Positions 3,510-33,037 are shown, numbered from the stretch's first letter. The stretch is 34,474 nucleotides of DNA from a virus (IMGVR_UViG_3300000288_000150); one strand, 5' to 3'. The notes: generated from the sequence alone by a model not told the origin. Numbers and translations are program-made.

Positions 3510-5784
3510 AGCCTCCGGGCGTTTTGTCCCTCCGTCAGCATTTGCCGCAGGCACCGGTAAGACGTTTACCGGTGCTTATGCATGGAACGCGCCACGCGAG
3601 GCCGTCGGGCGCGAAAGACCCCTTACACGTGACGAGATGCGTCAGGTGCAAGGTGTTTTATCCACGATTAACCGCCTGCCTTACTTTTTGCGCTCGCTGT
3701 TTACTTCACGCTATGACTACATCCGGCGCAATAAAAGCCCGGTGCACGGGTTTTATTTCCTCACATCCACTTTTCAGCGTCGTTTATGGCCGCGCATTGA
3801 GCGCGTTAATCAGCGCCATGAAATGAACACCGACGCGTCGTTGCTGTTTCTGGCAGAGCGTGACCACTATGCGCGCCTGCCTGGAATGAATGACAAGGAA
3901 CTGAAAAAGTTTGCCACCCGTATCTCATCGCAGCTTTTCATAATGTATGAGGAACTCTGCGATGCCTGGGTGGATGCGCATGGCGAGAAAGAATCACTGT
4001 TTACGGATGAGGCTCAGGATCACCTGTATGGTCATGTTGCTGGCGCTGCACGAGCTTTCAATATTTCCCCTCTCTACTGGAAAAAATACCGTAAAGGACA
4101 GATGACCACGAGGCAGGCTTATTCTGCCATTGCCCGTCTGTTTAACGATGAGTGGTGGACTCATCAGCTTAAAGGCCAGCGTATGCGCTGGCATGAGGCG
4201 TTACTGATTGCTGTCGGGGAGGTCAATAAAGACCGTTCTCCTTATGCCAGTAAACATGCCATTCGTGATGTGCGTGCGCGCCGCCAGGCAAATCTGGAGT
4301 TTCTTAAATCATGTGACCTTGAAAACAGGGAAACCGGCGAGCGCATCGACCTTATCAGTAAGGTGATGGGCAGTATTTCTAATCCTGAAATTCGCCGGAT
4401 GGAGCTGATGAACACCATTGCCGGTATTGAGCGTTACGCCGCCGCAGAGGGTGATGTGGGGATGTTTATCACGCTGACCACGCCGTCAAAGTATCACCCG
4501 ACACGTCAGGTCGGAAAAGGAGAAAGTAAAACCGTCCAGCTTAATCACGGCTGGAACGATGAGGCATTTAATCCGAAGGATGCGCAGCGTTATCTCTGCC
4601 GTATCTGGAGCCTGATGCGCACGGCATTCAAGGATAATGATTTACAGGTCTACGGTTTGCGTGTCGTCGAGCCACACCACGACGGAACGCCGCACTGGCA
4701 TATGATGCTTTTTTGTAATCCACGCCAGCGTAACCAGATTATTGAAATCATGCGTCGCTACGCGCTCAAAGAGGATGGAGACGAAAGAGGAGCCGCGCGA
4801 AACCGTTTTCAGGCAAAACATCTTAACCGGGGCGGTGCTGCGGGGTATATCGCGAAATACATCTCAAAAAACATCGACGGCTATGCACTGGATGGTCAGC
4901 TCGATAACGATACCGGCAGGCCGCTGAAAGATACTGCTGCGGCTGTTACCGCATGGGCGTCAACGTGGCGCATCCCGCAATTTAAAACGGTTGGCCTGCC
5001 GACAATGGGGGCTTACCGTGAACTACGCAAATTGCCTCGTGGCGTCAGCATTGCTGATGAGTTTGACGAACGCGTTGAGGCTGCACGTGCCGCCGCAGAC
5101 AGTGGTGATTTTGCGTTGTATATCAGCGCGCAGGGTGGGGCAAATGTTCCGCGTGATTGCCAGACTGTCAGAGTCGCCCGTAGCCCGTCGGATGACGTTA
5201 ACGAGTACGAGGAAGAAGTCGAGAGAGTGGTCGGCATTTACGCGCCGCATCTCGGCGCGCGTCATATTCATATCACCAGAACGACGGACTGGCGCATTGT
5301 GCCGAAAGTTCCGGTCGTTGAGCCTTTGACTTTAAAAAGCGGCATCGCCGCGCCTCGGAGTCCTGTCAATAACTGTGGAAAGCTCACCGGTGGTGATACT
5401 TCGTTACCGGCTCCCACACCTTCTGAGCACGCCGCAGCAGTGCTTAATCTGGTTGATGACGGTGTTATCGAATGGAATGACCCGGAGGTCGTGAGGGCGC
5501 TCAGGGGCGCATTAAAACACGGTCGGAGAACGCCAAACCGTCAGCAAAGAAACGGAAGCCCGTTAAAACCATATGAAATGGCACCATCGGCCAGACTGAC
5601 CCGGTCGGAACGAATGCAAATTACCCGTATCCGTGTTGACCTTGCTCAAAAGGGTATCAGGCCGCAGCGATGGGAACTTGAGGCGCTGGCGCGTGGAGCA
5701 ACCGTAAATTATGACGGGAAAAAATTCACGTATCCGGTTGCTGATGAGTGGCCGGGATTCTCAACAGTAATGGAGTGGAAATGA
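3499..5784 (+). CDS. A: Replication initiation protein A (rolling-circle nicking endonuclease, P2 gpA)
   Basis: 761 aa from the internal ATG (MAVKASGRF...) of ORF 3457..5784; contains the HxH-type motif (EPHHDGTPHWHMM) and tyrosine-rich region (GYIAKYISK) of rolling-circle initiators. Confidence 0.9.
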   Translation: MAVKASGRFVPPSAFAAGTGKTFTGAYAWNAPREAVGRERPLTRDEMRQVQGVLSTINRLPYFLRSLFTSRYDYIRRNKSPVHGFYFLTSTFQRRLWPRIERVNQRHEMNTDASLLFLAERDHYARLPGMNDKELKKFATRISSQLFIMYEELCDAWVDAHGEKESLFTDEAQDHLYGHVAGAARAFNISPLYWKKYRKGQMTTRQAYSAIARLFNDEWWTHQLKGQRMRWHEALLIAVGEVNKDRSPYASKHAIRDVRARRQANLEFLKSCDLENRETGERIDLISKVMGSISNPEIRRMELMNTIAGIERYAAAEGDVGMFITLTTPSKYHPTRQVGKGESKTVQLNHGWNDEAFNPKDAQRYLCRIWSLMRTAFKDNDLQVYGLRVVEPHHDGTPHWHMMLFCNPRQRNQIIEIMRRYALKEDGDERGAARNRFQAKHLNRGGAAGYIAKYISKNIDGYALDGQLDNDTGRPLKDTAAAVTAWASTWRIPQFKTVGLPTMGAYRELRKLPRGVSIADEFDERVEAARAAADSGDFALYISAQGGANVPRDCQTVRVARSPSDDVNEYEEEVERVVGIYAPHLGARHIHITRTTDWRIVPKVPVVEPLTLKSGIAAPRSPVNNCGKLTGGDTSLPAPTPSEHAAAVLNLVDDGVIEWNDPEVVRALRGALKHGRRTPNRQQRNGSPLKPYEMAPSARLTRSERMQITRIRVDLAQKGIRPQRWELEALARGATVNYDGKKFTYPVADEWPGFSTVMEWK

Positions 5785-6233
5785 TGGCAAAAATTCACGA
5801 GGTAAAGCTGCACGCAAAATATTTCGACCTTGTGCTGGAAGGAAAGAAACGTGCAGAGTTTCGGAAAAATGACCGTAATTATGAGCGCGGGGACACGCTG
5901 ATTTTGCATGAATGGGTACAGGGTGTGTTTACGGGGCGAAAGGTTGAAGCCCGGATAACAGATGTTACTGACCTGTCAGACTGGCTGGAAGATTATGTCT
6001 TGCTAAGTATTGAGCTGCTTAATACAGGCGCATATGAGATTGTGAACTGGAAAGAACTTAGTGAGCGTGGTCTGGTATTCAGAATTAATCATGAAATTAT
6101 GCATCAGCTCGGTCTTGCTGTTATGTATGAGTCAGTGACAGGCCTGTCTGGCGGAGCAGTGGTTGCTGCGGATGGGATGTGGAGCTATTCAGATGAACAG
6201 GTGGAGTGTGCAAAGCAAAAAGGGTGGTTTTGA
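5781..6233 (+). CDS. ASCH-domain (PUA-like fold) protein
   Basis: 150 aa from the ATG at 5781 (GGAG RBS; overlaps the A stop). N-terminal EVKLHAKYFDLVLEGKKRAEFRKNDRNYERGDTLIL resembles the ASCH beta-barrel motif. Domain call from memory, not searched. Confidence 0.5.
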   Translation: MMAKIHEVKLHAKYFDLVLEGKKRAEFRKNDRNYERGDTLILHEWVQGVFTGRKVEARITDVTDLSDWLEDYVLLSIELLNTGAYEIVNWKELSERGLVFRINHEIMHQLGLAVMYESVTGLSGGAVVAADGMWSYSDEQVECAKQKGWF

Positions 6234-6235
6234 AA

Positions 6236-6469
6236 ATGCACAGAATACCAGGCGAGATACCTCAGCATAAAACTAAAAATATCAAGCTGATGGCCATTGT
6301 TCACCGTCTACAGCAGATTATGGTCAACGAAAATCTGACGCCTGATGAGCTGGTCGGGTGTGCCGAAATGGTCCGGGATAATTACAGACGGTTTAACGAT
6401 ATCAGTAGACAGAAAATTGAGGTATTTCGACCAGCAAACATGCCTAAGAAACTACCGCATAGGATGTAG
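6236..6469 (+). CDS. Hypothetical small protein
   Basis: 77 aa from the ATG at 6236 inside ORF 6206..6469; no recognisable motif. Confidence 0.35.
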   Translation: MHRIPGEIPQHKTKNIKLMAIVHRLQQIMVNENLTPDELVGCAEMVRDNYRRFNDISRQKIEVFRPANMPKKLPHRM

Positions 6470-6475
6470 TATACT

Positions 6476-6508
6476 CGCCATTTCTGAAACTTGTTTTCAG
6501 AGATGGCG
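6476..6508 (+). terminator. Strong hairpin (14-bp stem, one mismatch) after the early/replication operon; possible terminator or regulatory structure
   Basis: CGCCATTTCTGAAA...TTTCAGAGATGGCG inverted repeat a few nt after the stop of the 6236..6469 ORF; no clear T-tract follows. Confidence 0.35.
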
Positions 6509-6684
6509 GGGTTGAACAATGAGCGTAGCGACGTGTTAGCTTTGATTCCTGCTGTGTTTACAATTAAACCTATTGAAAATTAATGAGAACTCAATTTCAT
6601 CTTTCTCTCGTTAAAGATGGCCACAACTACTAAAACATGAGAATATCAAAACTTGGCGAAATCTAGCTTTTCCCAAGGGGTGGT

Positions 6685-6720
6685 TTCGCTATAATACGCG
6701 GTCGGTTTTTAGGAGGGGCG
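6685..6720 (+). promoter_or_regulatory. Putative promoter -10 (TATAAT ~6690-6695) and strong Shine-Dalgarno (AGGAGG ~6708-6713) for the methyltransferase
   Basis: Consensus TATAAT hexamer and AGGAGG 7 nt before the ATG at 6721, in a ~250-bp AT-rich intergenic region; -35 not convincing. Confidence 0.35.
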
Positions 6721-7659
6721 ATGCCAACTGTAGTTTCACTTTTTTCTGGATGTGGTGGTTCTGATGCGGGAGTTTTGAGAGCAGGGTTCAATGTGCTGAT
6801 GGCAAACGATATTTTGCCTTATGCAAGGGACGTTTACTTAGAAAACCATCCTGAAACTGATTACATATTGGGCGATATTTCAGGACTCCAATCGTTCCCT
6901 TCTGCCGAATTGCTTATCGGATGCTATCCTTGCCAGGGATTTAGCCAGGGTGGAGCAAGGAAGGCAGATAGAAAGATTAATACTCTATATTTAGAGTTTG
7001 CTCGTGCTTTGAGAAAGATTAAGCCAAAAGCATTCATTGTAGAGAATGTTTCTGGAATGGTAAGGCGTAACTTTGAACATTTGTTAAAGGATCAATTCAA
7101 AGTTTTCGAAGAAGCAGGTTATACAGTAAGCTCGCAAATTCTGAATGCGTCCCACTATGGCGTATCACAAGATAGGAAGAGAATCTTTATCGTAGGAATA
7201 CGAAAAGACTATGGTATTACATACAAATTTCCAAAACCAACACATGGTGATGGCTTGAAACCATATTCAACAATTCGTGATGCTATTGGTCATATGCCTG
7301 TTTGGCCTATTGGTGAGTTTTATGATGCCGATTTTCATTGGTATTATCTATCGCGCAACCGTCGGCAAGATTGGGATCAGATATCTAAAACAATTGTTGC
7401 AAATCCTAGACATATGCCTCTACATCCAATAAGTCCAACATTAGAAAAATTGGGTCCAGATAAGTGGCAATTTACTTCGGATGCACCAGCTCGTAGGTTT
7501 AGTTATCGAGAGGCCGCTATTTTACAGGGTTTTGGAGACCTAATTTTTCCAGAAACTGAACGGGCTTCTATTAATATGAAGTATACAGTAGTTGGCAATG
7601 CTGTTCCGCCTCCTTTATTTGAGGCGGTTGCTAAATCTCTTCCAGATATTTGGGATTAG
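6721..7659 (+). CDS. DNA (cytosine-5)-methyltransferase, small M.HaeIII-like architecture
   Basis: Motif I FSGCGG, motif IV GCYPCQGFS, motif VI FIVENVSGM, motif VIII QDRKRIF, motif X TVVGNAVPPPL, with a variable target-recognition region between VIII and IX. 312 aa. Confidence 0.9.
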   Translation: MPTVVSLFSGCGGSDAGVLRAGFNVLMANDILPYARDVYLENHPETDYILGDISGLQSFPSAELLIGCYPCQGFSQGGARKADRKINTLYLEFARALRKIKPKAFIVENVSGMVRRNFEHLLKDQFKVFEEAGYTVSSQILNASHYGVSQDRKRIFIVGIRKDYGITYKFPKPTHGDGLKPYSTIRDAIGHMPVWPIGEFYDADFHWYYLSRNRRQDWDQISKTIVANPRHMPLHPISPTLEKLGPDKWQFTSDAPARRFSYREAAILQGFGDLIFPETERASINMKYTVVGNAVPPPLFEAVAKSLPDIWD

Positions 7660-8652
7660 TTATTCGACCTTAAGATCATTGATAATTTGTTCGAAATCAA
7701 GAAACCATTGTTCTGAAACTATTTTAGGGCAATGGTTTGTCTTTTTTAAAAGCTGTAATATCCTTGCTCTGTCAATGATCAATACTCCAGCGCAAGGGCT
7801 ATTGTCTACCCATTGACCATCTGAGTTTCGATAGAATACGGGGGTAAACATTAGAGTTGGTATGTCAAAATGCACTTGAAAATATGTTCGTAGTTTCAAT
7901 GAGTGGGCTTCAAGTGTTTTTTTGGGCCAATCTCTTTCTTGGGCTCCACATTGACCTAAAAAGGCAAAGTTACTACTTAATTTATCTTCAAATTCTATAG
8001 TTGCAACTATATCAAAACCACCATCACCTCTCGGATCAGCTCTTTCGCACTCTTGCTCATTAATATAAGGAACAGCTAAGTCTTTTCCTAGCCTTTTCAA
8101 GGCTTTTCTTAAATCAGTACCATAATATTTTCGCCTGTCATCTGAGTTTGCGTCAAATACTCGTACAGTTGAGTGTGCTGGGAGTAGTGCTGTTGCACAA
8201 AATTTACTTACGACAGCAAAATTTTTTGCCCAAAACTGTATTATTCCTTGCCTAGCCTTTGTGAAAGAACGTAACCTCGAGCATGCGAGTAAGAAAATAT
8301 ATATTCTTTGTATCTCAGTGAGGTTTTCTTTCAATGAAATAAAGTCACCATTAATAATAAATGGATAAATATCCTTGAGAAAATTTTGTCTAAAATCGAG
8401 TTGCGTCCAGACATCTTCAACTTGTCTTTCTAAACGGTCATTGCGTTCAGCATCGCAGCCTTCATTTTCATCTTCTTGATATTCTTGATCAATATCATCC
8501 ACACTTGTGTTACTTTGAGTTCTTATTGTTATGAGGTCATTTTTATGTAGATCATAACGACCAGAATAATTTATAACCGTAGCAAGTTCTGCAAGGTCTG
8601 CAAAAAGATGAGGAACACTAGGATGAATGTCTCCGATTTTAAAAATCTTCAT
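7660..8652 (-). CDS. Uncharacterised cargo protein; candidate restriction endonuclease or nuclease effector (possible PD-(D/E)xK-like motif)
   Basis: ORF 7660..8700 minus; preferred start is the ATG at 8652 (MKIFKIGD...), overlapping the upstream gene's stop by ~14 nt. Stop codon directly abuts the MTase stop (7657-7659 / 7660-7662). Segment ...GDGGFDIVATIEFEDK... could be a D...E-x-K catalytic motif. AT-rich. Confidence 0.55.
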   Translation of the reverse strand: MKIFKIGDIHPSVPHLFADLAELATVINYSGRYDLHKNDLITIRTQSNTSVDDIDQEYQEDENEGCDAERNDRLERQVEDVWTQLDFRQNFLKDIYPFIINGDFISLKENLTEIQRIYIFLLACSRLRSFTKARQGIIQFWAKNFAVVSKFCATALLPAHSTVRVFDANSDDRRKYYGTDLRKALKRLGKDLAVPYINEQECERADPRGDGGFDIVATIEFEDKLSSNFAFLGQCGAQERDWPKKTLEAHSLKLRTYFQVHFDIPTLMFTPVFYRNSDGQWVDNSPCAGVLIIDRARILQLLKKTNHCPKIVSEQWFLDFEQIINDLKVE

Positions 8653-9757
8653 CGTCAGAAACCTTTTTGGCTTTAATTGTATTACCAATAAGTTTGACAT
8701 TTTGACTTAGGCGTCTTGCAACTTCCAATGCTTCAGGATTGTAATCAATGGTTGCAACAATTCCAGCCGCTTCAATTAATGCAGATTCAGCTTTATAAAG
8801 TAACGTCATGAAATCTTGTTTTAAGTCTTCAGTTAACTGATACGCAACCTTAAGGTCAGCCCCGTTTCTAAAGGACGTTAAAGCCTTGGGGTTATCAATA
8901 ACAGAAGATAATAGGCGTAAATTTCGGGACTCTCCAACCTTTGTTTTCCCGGAATCATCCTTTTTATAAAGCCATACTGTAAGTTCTCTGGTATTTTCTC
9001 TATTTATATGATGTGGGTGAATTATTACATCATTGGATGTAATATCACCATATTCGTCTTTTTCTGAAACGCCAACAAACAATCCAATTTTCTCGTCAGC
9101 TAAGGCTGTAGATAAAATTGAAAACTTGATCGATTCTTCATCTAATCCATCAATATCATAAAAGTTATTGCTCTCCATTACTTTATAAACGGCTAAAGCA
9201 TCTAGATTTCTCTTGATATGATCTTTTCTGCTACCGATTGCACGAGCAACCTGATGATATCGATCATTAGTCGGTGAGTTTGGGGAGGTGAGACCAAAAA
9301 GTTGCTCGATATAACGAGCCTTCGATAGAGGTTCCCATTGTTTGACACCAGTGATATGTCTGAAACCCAAATAAGGTAAAATTTCAGCTCTGGTATCTCT
9401 AACGATCACTGGTAATTTTTCTAGTGTACCTAGTTTATCTTTAGCGCTTTCGGCGATTTCTATCATCCGGGAGCTGGGTCTGTCGCACTCATATGGGTTA
9501 TGAATAAGTTTAACTGCCGTTAAGCGACGGTTGCCTTCCACAACGGTGTACTTATCTCCCTCTTTAACCGCAATAAGAGGCTCGCCAGGAAAAAATCCAT
9601 TTTCTGCGATTGCATTCATCAAGTCTTCAATAGAGGTTGTTAGAGCTATATGATTTAGCATTGCTTCTGGGGTACGTTCAACACCTTCAGGAAGACGTGG
9701 ATTTTTTGTATCAAGCTCAAGTTTATTGAGGTCGATGTAATCAAGGCTTTCTGTCAT
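8639..9757 (-). CDS. ParB/Srx-fold (ParB N-terminal-domain-like) protein, first gene of the two-gene cargo operon
   Basis: ORF 8639..9790 minus; likely ATG start at 9757 (MTESLDYIDL...). N-terminal region ...IDLNKLELDTKNPR... + ...GFFPGEPLIAVKEGDKYTVVEGNRRLTAVKL... matches the ParB-box pattern. AT-rich. Confidence 0.65.
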   Translation of the reverse strand: MTESLDYIDLNKLELDTKNPRLPEGVERTPEAMLNHIALTTSIEDLMNAIAENGFFPGEPLIAVKEGDKYTVVEGNRRLTAVKLIHNPYECDRPSSRMIEIAESAKDKLGTLEKLPVIVRDTRAEILPYLGFRHITGVKQWEPLSKARYIEQLFGLTSPNSPTNDRYHQVARAIGSRKDHIKRNLDALAVYKVMESNNFYDIDGLDEESIKFSILSTALADEKIGLFVGVSEKDEYGDITSNDVIIHPHHINRENTRELTVWLYKKDDSGKTKVGESRNLRLLSSVIDNPKALTSFRNGADLKVAYQLTEDLKQDFMTLLYKAESALIEAAGIVATIDYNPEALEVARRLSQNVKLIGNTIKAKKVSDDEDF

Positions 9758-9944
9758 AACTCTAATCTCATTAGATATGGTGATATGCAAAGATTAACAC
9801 TGGAGTTAAACGTAGGCTAGAACTGCAATTATGTGCATTAAAATGCATGCGTAAGTAACTCGCTAAAATGAAGCCATAAACTCACAGTGGTGCTATGAAT
9901 AATATGTTATGCAACTGCATTAAAACCGACCCATGAAGCGGGCG

Positions 9945-9963
9945 GGCGAGGCGGGGAAAGCAC
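9945..9963. other. cos site: candidate 19-nt cohesive-end sequence GGCGAGGCGGGGAAAGCAC
   Basis: Sequence matches the P2 cohesive-end sequence as I recall it, and lies where cos is expected (between the old/tin-position cargo and Q), in a GC-rich non-coding stretch. Confidence 0.55.
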
Positions 9964-11183: not shown

Positions 11184-11262
11184 NNNNNNNNNNNNNNNNN
11201 NNNNNNNNNNNNNNNNNNNNNNNNNNNNNNNNNNNNNNNNNNNNNNNNNNNNNNNNNNNNNN
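11184..11262. other. Run of N (assembly gap or masked segment) at the P/Q junction
   Basis: 79 consecutive N. Confidence 1.
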
Positions 11263-17944: not shown

Positions 17945-18423
17945 TGATTGTGCTGGTCGTGTTGTTATCGCTGGCGGTGTCCGGTCTGTTTCTGGTGAAA
18001 CACAAAAATGCCAGCCTGCGCGCCTCGCTGGACAGGGCGAATAACGTCGCCAGTGAACAGCAGACGACCATCACCATGCTGAAAAATCAGCTTCATGTTN
18101 NNNNNNNNNNNNNNNNNNNNNNNNNNNNNNNNNNNNNNNNNNNNNNNNNNNNNNNNNNNNNNNNNNNNNNCACCAGGGCAGACAAAAACGAGCTGGCGCA
18201 GGTGGCACTGCGTCAGGAACTGGAAAACGCCGCGAAGCGTGAAGCTCAGCGCGAGAAAACCATCACGAGATTACTCAATGAAAACGAAGATTTTCGCCGC
18301 TGGTACGGTGCTGACCTGCCTGATGCTGTGCGCCGGTTGCACCAGCGCCCGGCCTGCGCAGACGCCAGTGATTGTCCACAACGCCTGCCCGAAAGTGAGT
18401 CTTTGCCCGATGCCGGGCAGTGA
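17932..18423 (+). CDS. lysB: LysB (Rz-like inner-membrane spanin component); interrupted by an N-run
   Basis: N-terminal TM segment then charged periplasmic region; the ORF spans the N-run 18100-18170, so length and frame continuity are unverified. Confidence 0.6.
   Translation: MSKLMIVLVVLLSLAVSGLFLVKHKNASLRASLDRANNVASEQQTTITMLKNQLHVXXXXXXXXXXXXXXXXXXXXXXXXTRADKNELAQVALRQELENAAKREAQREKTITRLLNENEDFRRWYGADLPDAVRRLHQRPACADASDCPQRLPESESLPDAGQ
18100..18170. other. Run of N inside lysB
   Basis: 71 consecutive N. Confidence 1.
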
Positions 18424-19509: not shown

Positions 19510-20208
19510 ATGAACACTCTCGCAAATATCCAGGAACTCGCGCGCGCACTGCGCAACATGATACGCCCCGGCATTATCGTCGAAACCGACCTTAACGCCG
19601 GTCGCTGCCGAGTGCAGACCGGCGGCATGTGCACTGACTGGCTTCAGTGGCTGACCCATCGTGCCGGTCGTTCGCGCACATGGTGGGCACCTTCCGTGGG
19701 GGAGCAGGTGCTGATTCTGGCCGTGGGCGGTGAACTCGACACGGCGTTCGTTCTGCCGGGGATTTATTCCGGCGATAACCCCGCGCCGTCTGCGTCGGCG
19801 GATGCCCTGCATATCCGTTTCCCTGACGGGGCGGTGATTGAGTATGAACCCGAAACCAGTGCACTCACGGTAAGCGGAATTAAAACGGCCAGCGTGACGG
19901 CTTCTGATTCTGTTACTGCCACGGTGCCGGTGGTTATGGTGAAAGCATCAACCCGCGTCACCCTGGACACACCGGAGGTGGTCTGCACCAACAGGCTGAT
20001 TACCGGCACGCTGGAAGTGCAGAAGGGCGGGACGATGCGCGGCAACATTGAACACACCGGCGGTGAACTCTCATCAAACGGTAAGGTACTGCATACCCAC
20101 AAACACCCAGGCGACAGCGGCGGCACANNNNNNNNNNNNNNNNNNNNNNNNNNNNNNNNNNNNNNNNNNNNNNNNNNNNNNNNNNNNNNNNNCGGGAGTC
20201 CTCTATGA
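19510..20208 (+). CDS. V: Baseplate spike/assembly protein (P2 gpV); 3' region interrupted by an N-run
   Basis: MNTLANIQELARALRNM... N-terminus; the N-run 20128-20192 sits near the C-terminus, so apparent length is unreliable. Confidence 0.8.
   Translation: MNTLANIQELARALRNMIRPGIIVETDLNAGRCRVQTGGMCTDWLQWLTHRAGRSRTWWAPSVGEQVLILAVGGELDTAFVLPGIYSGDNPAPSASADALHIRFPDGAVIEYEPETSALTVSGIKTASVTASDSVTATVPVVMVKASTRVTLDTPEVVCTNRLITGTLEVQKGGTMRGNIEHTGGELSSNGKVLHTHKHPGDSGGTXXXXXXXXXXXXXXXXXXXXXXGSPL
20128..20192. other. Run of N near the 3' end of V
   Basis: 65 consecutive N. Confidence 1.
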
Positions 20209-26202: not shown

Positions 26203-26279
26203 NNNNNNNNNNNNNNNNNNNNNNNNNNNNNNNNNNNNNNNNNNNNNNNNNNNNNNNNNNNNNNNNNNNNNNNNNNNNN
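26203..26279. other. Run of N immediately upstream of the Z/fun-position cargo gene start
   Basis: 77 consecutive N. Confidence 1.
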
Positions 26280-31809: not shown

Positions 31810-33037
31810 TGCTGGATACGCTGACATTTGATGCAGGCAGTACGCTGACGCCGGATTACATGCTGATGCTCGACAGCAGGGATATTACCGGCAATATCAG
31901 CGATCGACTGATGAGCATGACCCTGACGGATAACCGGGGCTTTGAGGCTGACCAGCTTGATATTGAACTGAACGATGCCGACGGGCAGGTCGGGCTGCCG
32001 GTTCGTGGCGCTGTCCTGACGGTGTATATCGGCTGGAAAGGTTTTGCCCTGGTATGCAAAGGGANNNNNNNNNNNNNNNNNNNNNNNNNNNNNNNNNNNN
32101 NNNNNNNNNNNNNNNNNNNNNNNNNNNNNNNNNNNNNNNNNNNNNNNNNNNNNNNCGGGGCGCACCGGATGTGGTCACCATCCGCGCCCGGAGTGCAGAT
32201 TTTCGCGGGACGCTCAATTCCCGCCGTGAAGGCTCCTGGCATGACACCACGCTCGGTGCGATTGTTGAGGCGATAGCCTCCCGTAACAGGCTGGAAGCCA
32301 GTGTCGCTCCGTCACTGGCCGGAATTAAAATCCCGCACATCGACCAGTCGCAGGAGTCTGATGCGAAATTCCTGACCCGTCTTGCAGAACGCAACGGCGG
32401 TGAGGTGTCGGTAAAAATGGGAAAACTGTTGTTTCTCAAAGCGGGGCAGGGGGTGACGGCCAGCGGTAAAAAAAACCCGCAGGTCACCATAACCCGCAGC
32501 GACGGCGACCGCCATCATTTTGCGATTGCTGACCGTGGAGCCTATACCGGCGTAACGGCAAAGTGGTTACACACCAAAGACCCGAAGCCACAAAAGCAGA
32601 AGGTAAAACTGAAACGCAAAAAGAAAGAGAAACACCTGCGCGCACTGGAGCACCCGAAAGCGAAACCAGTCACGCAGAAGAAAGCGCCAAAAGTACCGGA
32701 AGCGCGCGAAGGTGAATACATGGCTGGTGAGGCTGACAACGTTTTTGCCCTGACCACGGTATATGCCACGAAAGCGCAGGCCATGCGCGCCGCTCAGGCG
32801 AAGTGGGATAAACTGCAACGGGGCGTTGCGGAGTTCTCCATCAGCCTTGCCACTGGTCGTGCTGATATTTACACGGAAACACCGGTCAGAGTGTCAGGCT
32901 TTAAGCGCGTCATAGACGAGCAGGACTGGACAATCACTAAGGTGACACATTTTCTGAATAATAGTGGCTTCACGACGTCCTTAGAGCTTGAGGTCAGGCT
33001 TTCTGATGTGGAGTACGAAACAGAAGATGATGATTAA
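31809..33037 (+). CDS. D: Tail protein D (late gene D); interrupted by an N-run
   Basis: N-terminus MLDTLTFDAGSTLTPDYM... and C-terminus ending at 33037 are both D-like but are joined across the N-run 32065-32155 with an apparent frame change, so the gap length is artificial. Confidence 0.8.
32065..32155. other. Run of N inside D
   Basis: 91 consecutive N. Confidence 1.

Follow-up and report, generated by a model that had tools for sequence, protein, structure and literature searches.

A three-gene cassette of a ParB-like protein, a predicted nuclease-fold protein and a HaeIII-like methylase in a P2-like prophage: a candidate restriction-modification system of split design

The viral sequence IMGVR_UViG_3300000288_000150 (34,474 nucleotides (nt); this whole stretch is called the window below) is a P2-like (Peduovirus) prophage. 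We examined an open reading frame (ORF) on its minus strand, here called the target, whose product of 330 amino acids (aa) had been put forward in a sequence-only reading of the DNA as a candidate restriction endonuclease or effector. The target lies immediately downstream of a gene for a ParB-like protein, with which it forms what we call the nuclease pair, and it converges on a cytosine methylase gene. Together the three genes make up the cassette considered here:

6721 to 7659, plus strand: convergent C5 cytosine methyltransferase gene (Pfam DNA_methylase PF00145, 3.7e-62)
7660 to 8652, minus strand: target ORF, 330 aa, with its ATG at 8652 and its stop codon TAA at 7662-7660
8639 to 8652, minus strand: overlap of 14 nt between the end of the ParB-like gene (stop codon TAA at 8641-8639) and the start of the target
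8639 to 9757, minus strand: ParB-like gene, 372 aa from the RefSeq start (the longest ORF reaches a TTG at 9790)

The sequence, an identical 330-aa RefSeq product (WP_000688782.1, 'hypothetical protein', Escherichia coli SF-088) and many homologues bear out the ~330-aa minus-strand ORF at 7660-8652. An upstream ATG at 8700 would give 346 aa, and the earlier reading had posed the choice between the two starts. We favour 8652, with its 14-nt overlap, because the homologues begin at this position (consensus MxFxIG..HPNTPHLFADLAEL), as does the RefSeq product. At its other end, the TAA of the target (7660-7662) directly abuts the TAG of the methylase (7657-7659) with no spacer, so the two genes do end exactly against each other at 7659/7660, as had been noted. 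The tight coupling to the ParB-like gene also held. The 14-nt overlap, which implies translational coupling as judged from the gene layout, recurs in loci from Pseudomonas and Burkholderia (L004 and L007). In deep relatives the two genes are separated by 3-6 nt or overlap by 8 nt, with the exception of one locus (L037, 64 nt).

The three genes have stayed together over deep divergence. The order ParB-like gene, target, HaeIII-like methylase persists from 86% down to ~24% identity and across unrelated mobile elements, adjoins integrases in Pseudomonas and Burkholderia, and was present, within that locus set, at 10 of 14 genome loci whose flanks were long enough to tell. At every locus examined a ParB-like gene with a GNRR motif lay directly upstream of the target, usually overlapping it or less than 10 nt away. 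Relatives 24-31% identical to the target retain the three-gene set with the methylase co-directional, and often have a gene for the mismatch endonuclease Vsr adjacent. Compared with the window proteins, the products of these distant cassettes share 41-44% (methylase), 34-41% (ParB-like) and 24-31% (target) identity, all three diverging jointly. Whether the setting is a P2 phage, an integrase-borne island or a metagenomic contig, and whether the gene order is convergent or co-directional, the linked methylase is HaeIII-like (41-98% identity). Among 5,426 complete E. coli genomes, 36 carry the nuclease pair, and in every one of these the matching methylase allele is present, at least 99% identical; the methylase of the cassette occurs in at least 140 of the same genomes (2.6%). 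Several P2-like phages hold the full cassette, which is absent from most P2-like phages and present in 13-18 of 50,697 phage records. Because the arrangement is kept across this divergence and these mobile elements, the functional tie between target and methylase is much stronger than a single locus could reveal.

The methylase aligns with M.HaeIII (1dct; 1.3e-49, residues 4-307) over its full length, including the target-recognition region. Even in the methylases of the most distant cassettes, the recognition-region segments SRNR...W and R-x-x-P-LHP are retained; these segments include the equivalents of HaeIII R225 and R227 (alignment numbering), which we take to be base contacts. This alignment makes GGCC a plausible specificity, and we propose the HaeIII-like enzyme as the cognate protective methylase of the cassette.

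The histories of the individual genes add to this picture. A methylase allele ~93% identical in DNA to that of the window is found in 104 E. coli genomes and in phage Wphi (there 92-93% in DNA and 97.8% in protein), and the nuclease pair of Wphi is just 25% and 32% identical. The DNA similarity between Wphi (L003, 4236-7406) and the window (6476-7658) stops at the methylase stop codon. The restriction genes of Wphi have thus been cleanly swapped with the methylase retained, which suggests pairs that are interchangeable against one methylation specificity; the exchange of such distant pairs against one methylase fits a common specificity throughout the family. In the diagnostic Yersinia phage L-413C, a single deletion spans the methylase gene, the target and the 3' part of the ParB-like gene, of which the first 309 codons are left (L002, 3920-4912; window, 8846-9963), and the phage is viable. 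Three E. coli strains, GF47 (L034, 2480-4375), GF50 and GF54, have IS1A inserted in the ParB-like gene, which is split into pieces of 236 aa and 151 aa, with the target and the methylase intact.

Within the window, the region 6400-10100 matches a prophage of E. coli SF-088 at 100% identity and phage vB_EcoM-12474III at 99.8%. The cassette sits between replication genes (gene A and orf91, which encodes a DUF3850 protein) and the portal gene, and, if the terminus of the linear L-413C record is taken as a guide, directly beside cos. The G+C content (GC) of ~6300-9900 is 33-42%, compared with 52-57% in the phage backbone, so we read this segment as acquired cargo. The site is the P2 hotspot from which Vassallo et al. 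described several defence systems (PMC9519451).

The ParB-like partner combines a ParB/Srx N-terminal nucleoside triphosphate (NTP)-binding fold, a ParB-type helix-turn-helix (HTH) and a C-terminal helical domain. Comparison of the partner with known proteins returned Spo0J (7.4, 157 residues), a match that extends beyond the N-terminal domain into the HTH region. Further matches were to sulfiredoxin, to a serine kinase and to the DNA-binding domains of SopB, KorB and ParB (5.2-5.7). The matches to Spo0J, SopB, KorB and ParB point to a full ParB layout, with a C-terminal helical region. In domain searches the partner belongs with ParB_N/TIGR00180 and not with DUF262, has no HNH or DUF1524 domain and, apart from the ParB/Srx fold, shows nothing recognisable as a nuclease domain. 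Its phosphate-binding motif is as follows:

9524 to 9538, minus strand: ParB box II (GxRR), codons E74-G-N-R-R78, reading GNRR with Asn in place of the Glu of the canonical GERR

GNRR is invariant in 56 aligned homologues, and the invariant VVEGNRRLTAVKL of the partner aligns to LIAGERRLRASKL of Helicobacter pylori ParB (4umk). In ParB CTPases the Glu of GERR is required for CTP hydrolysis and not for binding. By analogy, the invariant Asn of GNRR suggests nucleotide binding with slow or altered hydrolysis. The partner thus resembles the CTP-dependent clamps ParB, KorB and Noc in its ParB N-terminal fold, GxRR box, HTH and C-terminal helical domain. It differs from them in having no ParA (no parA gene was present at any locus examined) and no evidence of parS, in the change from Glu to Asn, in being encoded with a nuclease-fold protein and a methylase, and in an NTP binding that is predicted only.

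The target itself belongs to a large family that lacks a curated model. A word-indexed search returned 277 homologues, and an exhaustive profile search of 1.84 billion cluster representatives (clusters at 50% identity) returned 1,196 (702 at E <= 1e-10), nearly all of 300-365 aa. No significant match to the target was found in Pfam, PADLOC, NCBIfam or PDB sequences (phmmer, together with the family profile for PDB), in keeping with the earlier remark that it has no recognisable conserved domain. A Pfam scan of 89 divergent members (E <= 1) gave scattered single-member noise, with no match to Mrr_cat PF04471 or any other restriction-enzyme family. We also considered the target as a homologue of R.HaeIII or of another known GGCC enzyme and dropped the idea, as there was no match to a Pfam restriction-enzyme family.

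The predicted layout of the target is a winged-helix domain plus an Mrr-like PD-(D/E)xK nuclease-fold domain, in which structure comparison detected the alpha/beta core of that fold (a mixed sheet with flanking helices). The closest structural neighbours include the catalytic domains of the modification-dependent enzymes MspJI and AspBHI, and the LlaBIII nuclease domain is also Mrr-/FokI-like kin. Foldseek against PDB returned nothing at E <= 1e-3, with BsaWI at E 0.017 and MspJI at a probability of 0.9. The nuclease-like core for which the sequence-only reading had proposed a structure search was detected, but Foldseek agreed weakly, and the fold assignment is therefore consistent on moderate scores. 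In a global hhalign alignment (probability 38%), the GDGGxD, Q, FI(P/T) and LvD(R/G)xRl segments of the family are co-linear with core segments of Mrr, which is suggestive and not significant; the corresponding sequences are GDGGIDGV...VYVQAKRW in E. coli Mrr and GDGGFDIV...FLGQCGAQERDWPKK in the target.

Residue conservation was assessed in 139 representatives with 20-47% identity to the query. Ten residues are invariant (D19, E22, R88, Y118, F145, D214, Q234, W242, R295 and R297), and Y96-P97-F98, G209, D210, G212, D223, C235, K245, P271, R275, G279, W281 and D294 are at least 90% conserved. Four segments concern the putative active site:

8587 to 8598, minus strand: codons of D19...E22, in the N-terminal helix HLxADxxEL (helix 14-26 in the model), both residues in 139/139
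8011 to 8028, minus strand: GDxGxD motif, codons G209-D210-G-G212-F-D214, with D214 in 139/139, D210 in 137/139 and G209 in 131/139
7918 to 7953, minus strand: codons of Q234-C-G...W242-P-K-K245, with Q234 and W242 in 139/139 and K245 in 135/139, a predicted beta3 'Q-x-(A/G)' with the lysine apparently displaced
7762 to 7773, minus strand: DRxR, codons of D294-R295-A-R297 at the start of the last core helix, with D294 in 138/139 and R295 and R297 in 139/139

We propose D214, where core strand beta2 begins, as an Asp that binds metal. It immediately precedes the modelled strand 215-219, and Q234 ends the strand 229-235, a placement that matches the geometry of the D...(D/E/Q)xK signature. GDxGxD is also co-linear with GDGGID of E. 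coli Mrr in the global hhalign alignment, which is weak evidence. D19 and E22 could contribute to the active site from helix alpha1, or could instead form an interface with the partner. The catalytic motif suggested earlier, RGDGGFDIVATIEFEDKL, is present at residues 207-224. Its GDGGFD half is conserved (G209, D210, G212 and D214 at 91-100%), as is D223 (91%), but E220, E222 and K224 are not; we would therefore qualify the suggestion and regard Q234 and K245, rather than EFEDK, as the likely partners of GDGGFD.

The position of the lysine deserves separate attention. The canonical QxK lysine would fall at position 236, which is Ala or Gly in the target and most of the family. In 133 of the 139 sequences this position holds Ala, Gly, Thr, Val or Ile, and all 133 have K245. 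The remaining six form a single deep clade with a canonical Q(C/S)K at 236, and K245 is gone from four of these. The other invariant residues are all retained throughout the clade, and the two contigs examined show the same gene neighbours. We read this pattern as relocation of the catalytic lysine. The reciprocal occurrence of K236 and K245 suggests that the protein needs a lysine for its function, and so speaks for an active nuclease rather than a dead fold that binds DNA. Counting the six QxK sequences as independent events was rejected, as they are monophyletic.

A dead fold is the first alternative to be weighed. The target might be a catalytically inactive restriction-endonuclease fold that serves as a DNA-binding or specificity subunit, with cleavage, or a block without cleavage, exerted by the ParB-like protein or a host factor. 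The canonical QxK lysine is missing, the fold-match scores are modest, and the invariant R88, YPF96-98, Y118 and DRxR294-297 look DNA-binding or structural rather than catalytic. Inactive DNA-binding restriction-endonuclease domains have moreover been described beside ParB-type sensors in Menshen NsnA. We nonetheless regard this alternative as unlikely: D210, D214, Q234 and K245 are retained at 97-100% over very deep divergence, the reciprocal lysine pattern suggests that the lysine is needed, the partner offers no recognisable nuclease domain beyond its ParB/Srx fold, and the cassette conserves no second nuclease gene, since Vsr is present only in some cases.

Taken over linkage, conservation and the structural model, the target is probably the nuclease (R) subunit of a three-gene restriction-modification (R-M) cassette based on 5-methylcytosine (m5C), which here travels as cargo of low GC in the hotspot of P2-type prophages, beside cos and the portal gene. 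The best-supported description is that the cassette works like an R-M system whose restriction function is split between a ParB-type subunit and an Mrr-like nuclease with a winged helix. In such a system, the HaeIII-like methylase would mark host and prophage DNA, probably at GGCC. The ParB-like protein would bind DNA through its HTH and nucleotide through the GNRR box of its N-terminal domain, acting as a switch or clamp, and would partner the 330-aa target protein as a sensor or loader subunit. The Mrr-like PD-(D/E)xK domain of the target would cut unmethylated incoming DNA, with the winged helix adding DNA binding and with D214, Q234 and K245, perhaps joined by D19 and E22, as the active site. 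The analysis shows the gene with its close coupling to the ParB-like gene, the predicted folds of the two proteins, the conserved residues and the conserved linkage of the three genes; from these we infer catalysis, the physical complex, the subunit that reads methylation, the recognition site and any nucleotide dependence. The earlier suggestion of a restriction endonuclease is thus supported by the three-gene linkage over deep divergence, but not in the form of a classical one-protein Type II enzyme.

Several observations weigh against this assignment. Sequence profiles give no tie between the target family and any known nuclease family, and a literature search turned up no experiment on any family member. 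Local hhalign to the catalytic domain of E. coli Mrr, whether this was entered as one sequence or as a profile of 121 sequences, covers the last strand and helix alone, with a probability of 7-37%; DRxR is the sole segment aligned in this way (to VLVDGERL, 16-37%). The canonical (D/E/Q)xK lysine is missing from the target, its substitution by K245 is read from conservation, the relocation is a single evolutionary event given that the six QxK sequences are one clade, and residues 246-250, next to K245, are modelled at low confidence. Finally, the pair lacks an adjacent C5 methylase at four loci (L009, L014, L016 and L020). At L009 (13-4326), from a Methylococcaceae metagenome-assembled genome, it follows immediately on type I R-M genes, which encode HsdM, HsdS and an AAA ATPase, in a defence-island context; L014 has ~700 nt of downstream sequence with no match, and L016 carries an IS605-type insertion at the methylase position. 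Either these four genomes may encode the methylase at another site, or the pair may be tolerated with no methylase beside it.

How the proposed R-M cassette relates to known systems can be seen by comparing its parts. It resembles classical Type II R-M systems in that a HaeIII-like methylase adjoins a PD-(D/E)xK-fold gene, that Vsr is a frequent neighbour and that the genes are carried on mobile elements. It differs in placing the restriction function in two coupled genes, one of which has a ParB fold with an NTP-binding box, and in a nuclease pair that diverges far faster than the methylase and is swappable against the same allele. The definition of a classical Type IIP enzyme as a homodimer from a single gene, in need of Mg2+ alone and with no NTP-binding partner, does not describe the target, which always has the GNRR ParB-like gene directly upstream. 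Set against the Mrr-/FokI-like PD-(D/E)xK domains of E. coli Mrr, MspJI, AspBHI and LlaBIII, the target has no Pfam Mrr_cat match, has Ala or Gly in place of the QxK lysine with a conserved lysine 11 residues downstream (K245), and adds a winged helix and an invariant N-terminal D/E helix; it is further distinguished by its constant association with a ParB-like partner and an m5C methylase.

The closest described neighbour is PD-lambda-5, an experimentally validated system from the same P2 hotspot that consists of a ParB-domain protein and a DNA methyltransferase and that its authors call a compact combination of R-M and abortive infection (RM+Abi; PMC9519451). According to the supplement of that paper, PD-lambda-5A is a ~450-500-aa ParB_N fusion with a weak HEPN/DUF4145-like C-terminus, and PD-lambda-5B is a D12-class N6-adenine methylase (PMC9519451). 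The PADLOC PD-Lambda-5_A models match residues ~12-171 of our partner (model positions 1-166 of 428-592; E down to 8e-23), and the 372-aa protein therefore matches PD-lambda-5A in its N-terminal domain alone. The methylase of the cassette is instead a C5 enzyme, and its third gene, the target, matches no PADLOC model and has no counterpart in PD-lambda-5. The cassette thus resembles PD-lambda-5 but is not a member. Literature on PD-lambda-5, on ParB in connection with restriction or CTPase activity, on P2 hotspots, on Wphi and on the methylomes of O145:H28 yielded no description of it. Pfam, NCBIfam and PADLOC attach no functional name to the target family.

The pairing of a ParB-superfamily protein with a nuclease also defines GmrSD, SspE, Menshen and their relatives, in which a ParB-fold module that binds both NTP and DNA acts with a nuclease effector in defence, the logic proposed here. 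This likeness raises a second alternative, namely that the pair is a methylase-independent defence, either a split GmrSD-like, modification-dependent Type IV enzyme or an abortive-infection effector, and that the methylase is a separate anti-restriction gene of the phage. The closest structural matches of the target include the modification-dependent MspJI and AspBHI, a few loci have no adjacent methylase, and the methylase and the nuclease pair of Wphi have clearly separate recent histories. However, the MspJI and AspBHI matches are not mappable residue by residue and so give no evidence for a modification reader. GmrSD, SspE and Menshen use DUF262 (DGQQR) and HNH/DUF1524 or other effectors, and either act on modified DNA or work without a cognate methylase, whereas the cassette has a canonical ParB_N partner (GNRR corresponding to GERR), a PD-(D/E)xK-fold effector with no HNH/DUF1524, and a linked methylase. 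One HaeIII-like methylase family accompanies the pair throughout diverse elements and in both gene orders, and in all 36 of the E. coli genomes with the pair. A defence that does without the methylase therefore seems to us improbable.

A role outside defence (partition, packaging or regulation through ParB-type DNA binding near cos) would suit the full ParB architecture of the partner and the position of the genes directly beside cos in P2-type phages, as judged by the linear L-413C record end, but is very hard to reconcile with the lack of ParA at every locus examined, the low GC of the cargo (33-42% against 52-57%), its absence from most P2-like phages (13-18 of 50,697 records carry it), its deletion in the viable L-413C and interruption by IS1 in three E. 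coli strains, and its occurrence outside phages with Vsr and methylase.

Some features of the window stand beside these results. A consensus scan picked out one further element near the junction of the convergent genes:

7702 to 7738, plus strand: terminator-like hairpin of 17 pairs with a T-run

The hairpin lies 43 nt past the methylase stop codon, within the 3' coding part of the target gene, and on its position may block antisense methylase transcripts from entering the nuclease operon. Upstream of the cassette, the homologue of P2 orf91 (5748-6233, plus strand) encodes a DUF3850 (PUA/ASCH-like) protein and is a separate, conserved gene of the P2 backbone; a 2025 survey reported that DUF3850 is often fused to ParB-CTPase folds in phages (PMC12704722). 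In one distant cassette, a short gene of the HTH_3 (Xre) type lies ahead of the ParB-like gene (L028, 3032-3460; L029, 292-675). It is reminiscent of R-M controller (C) proteins, and no equivalent was seen in the window. The window contains 114 GGCC sites, compared with 148 +/- 12 in shuffles (Markov observed/expected ratio 0.65, with no host baseline). Other four-base palindromes over the whole window gave ratios of 0.25 for GATC, a strong depletion, and 0.70 for CTAG. With GATC and CTAG depleted too and no host baseline, we set the mild avoidance of GGCC aside as evidence. The window is broken at five places by runs of N of 65-91 bases, at 11184-11262, 18100-18170, 20128-20192, 26203-26279 and 32065-32155; the first falls at the junction of the portal and terminase genes and yields stretches of X in ORF translations.

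Within the R-M reading, a more specific mechanism can be put forward tentatively, although we are inclined to doubt it. The ParB-like subunit may serve as a nucleotide-gated clamp for distinguishing self from non-self, loading at an unmethylated HaeIII-type site that would act like a methylation-sensitive parS, closing on CTP or ATP, sliding or spreading, and delivering or activating the Mrr-like nuclease so that it cuts at a distance. Such a clamp would account for interchangeable, divergent pairs on one methylase allele and for a superfamily tied to one methylase family. If true, a ParB-type switch would drive restriction in place of a motor (helicase or translocase) or of simple binding to a site.

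If the target is indeed the nuclease subunit of the cassette, it would be the cleavage subunit of a widespread and so far unrecognised R-M architecture, with ~1,200 clusters at 50% identity. It would add another defence system to the catalogue of the P2 hotspot, for which current defence-finder tools have no model, and would offer a tractable case for studying roles of ParB-type switches outside chromosome segregation. Lysogens would carry HaeIII-type m5C methylation, with consequences for cloning, for sensitivity to McrBC and Mrr, and for phage host range.

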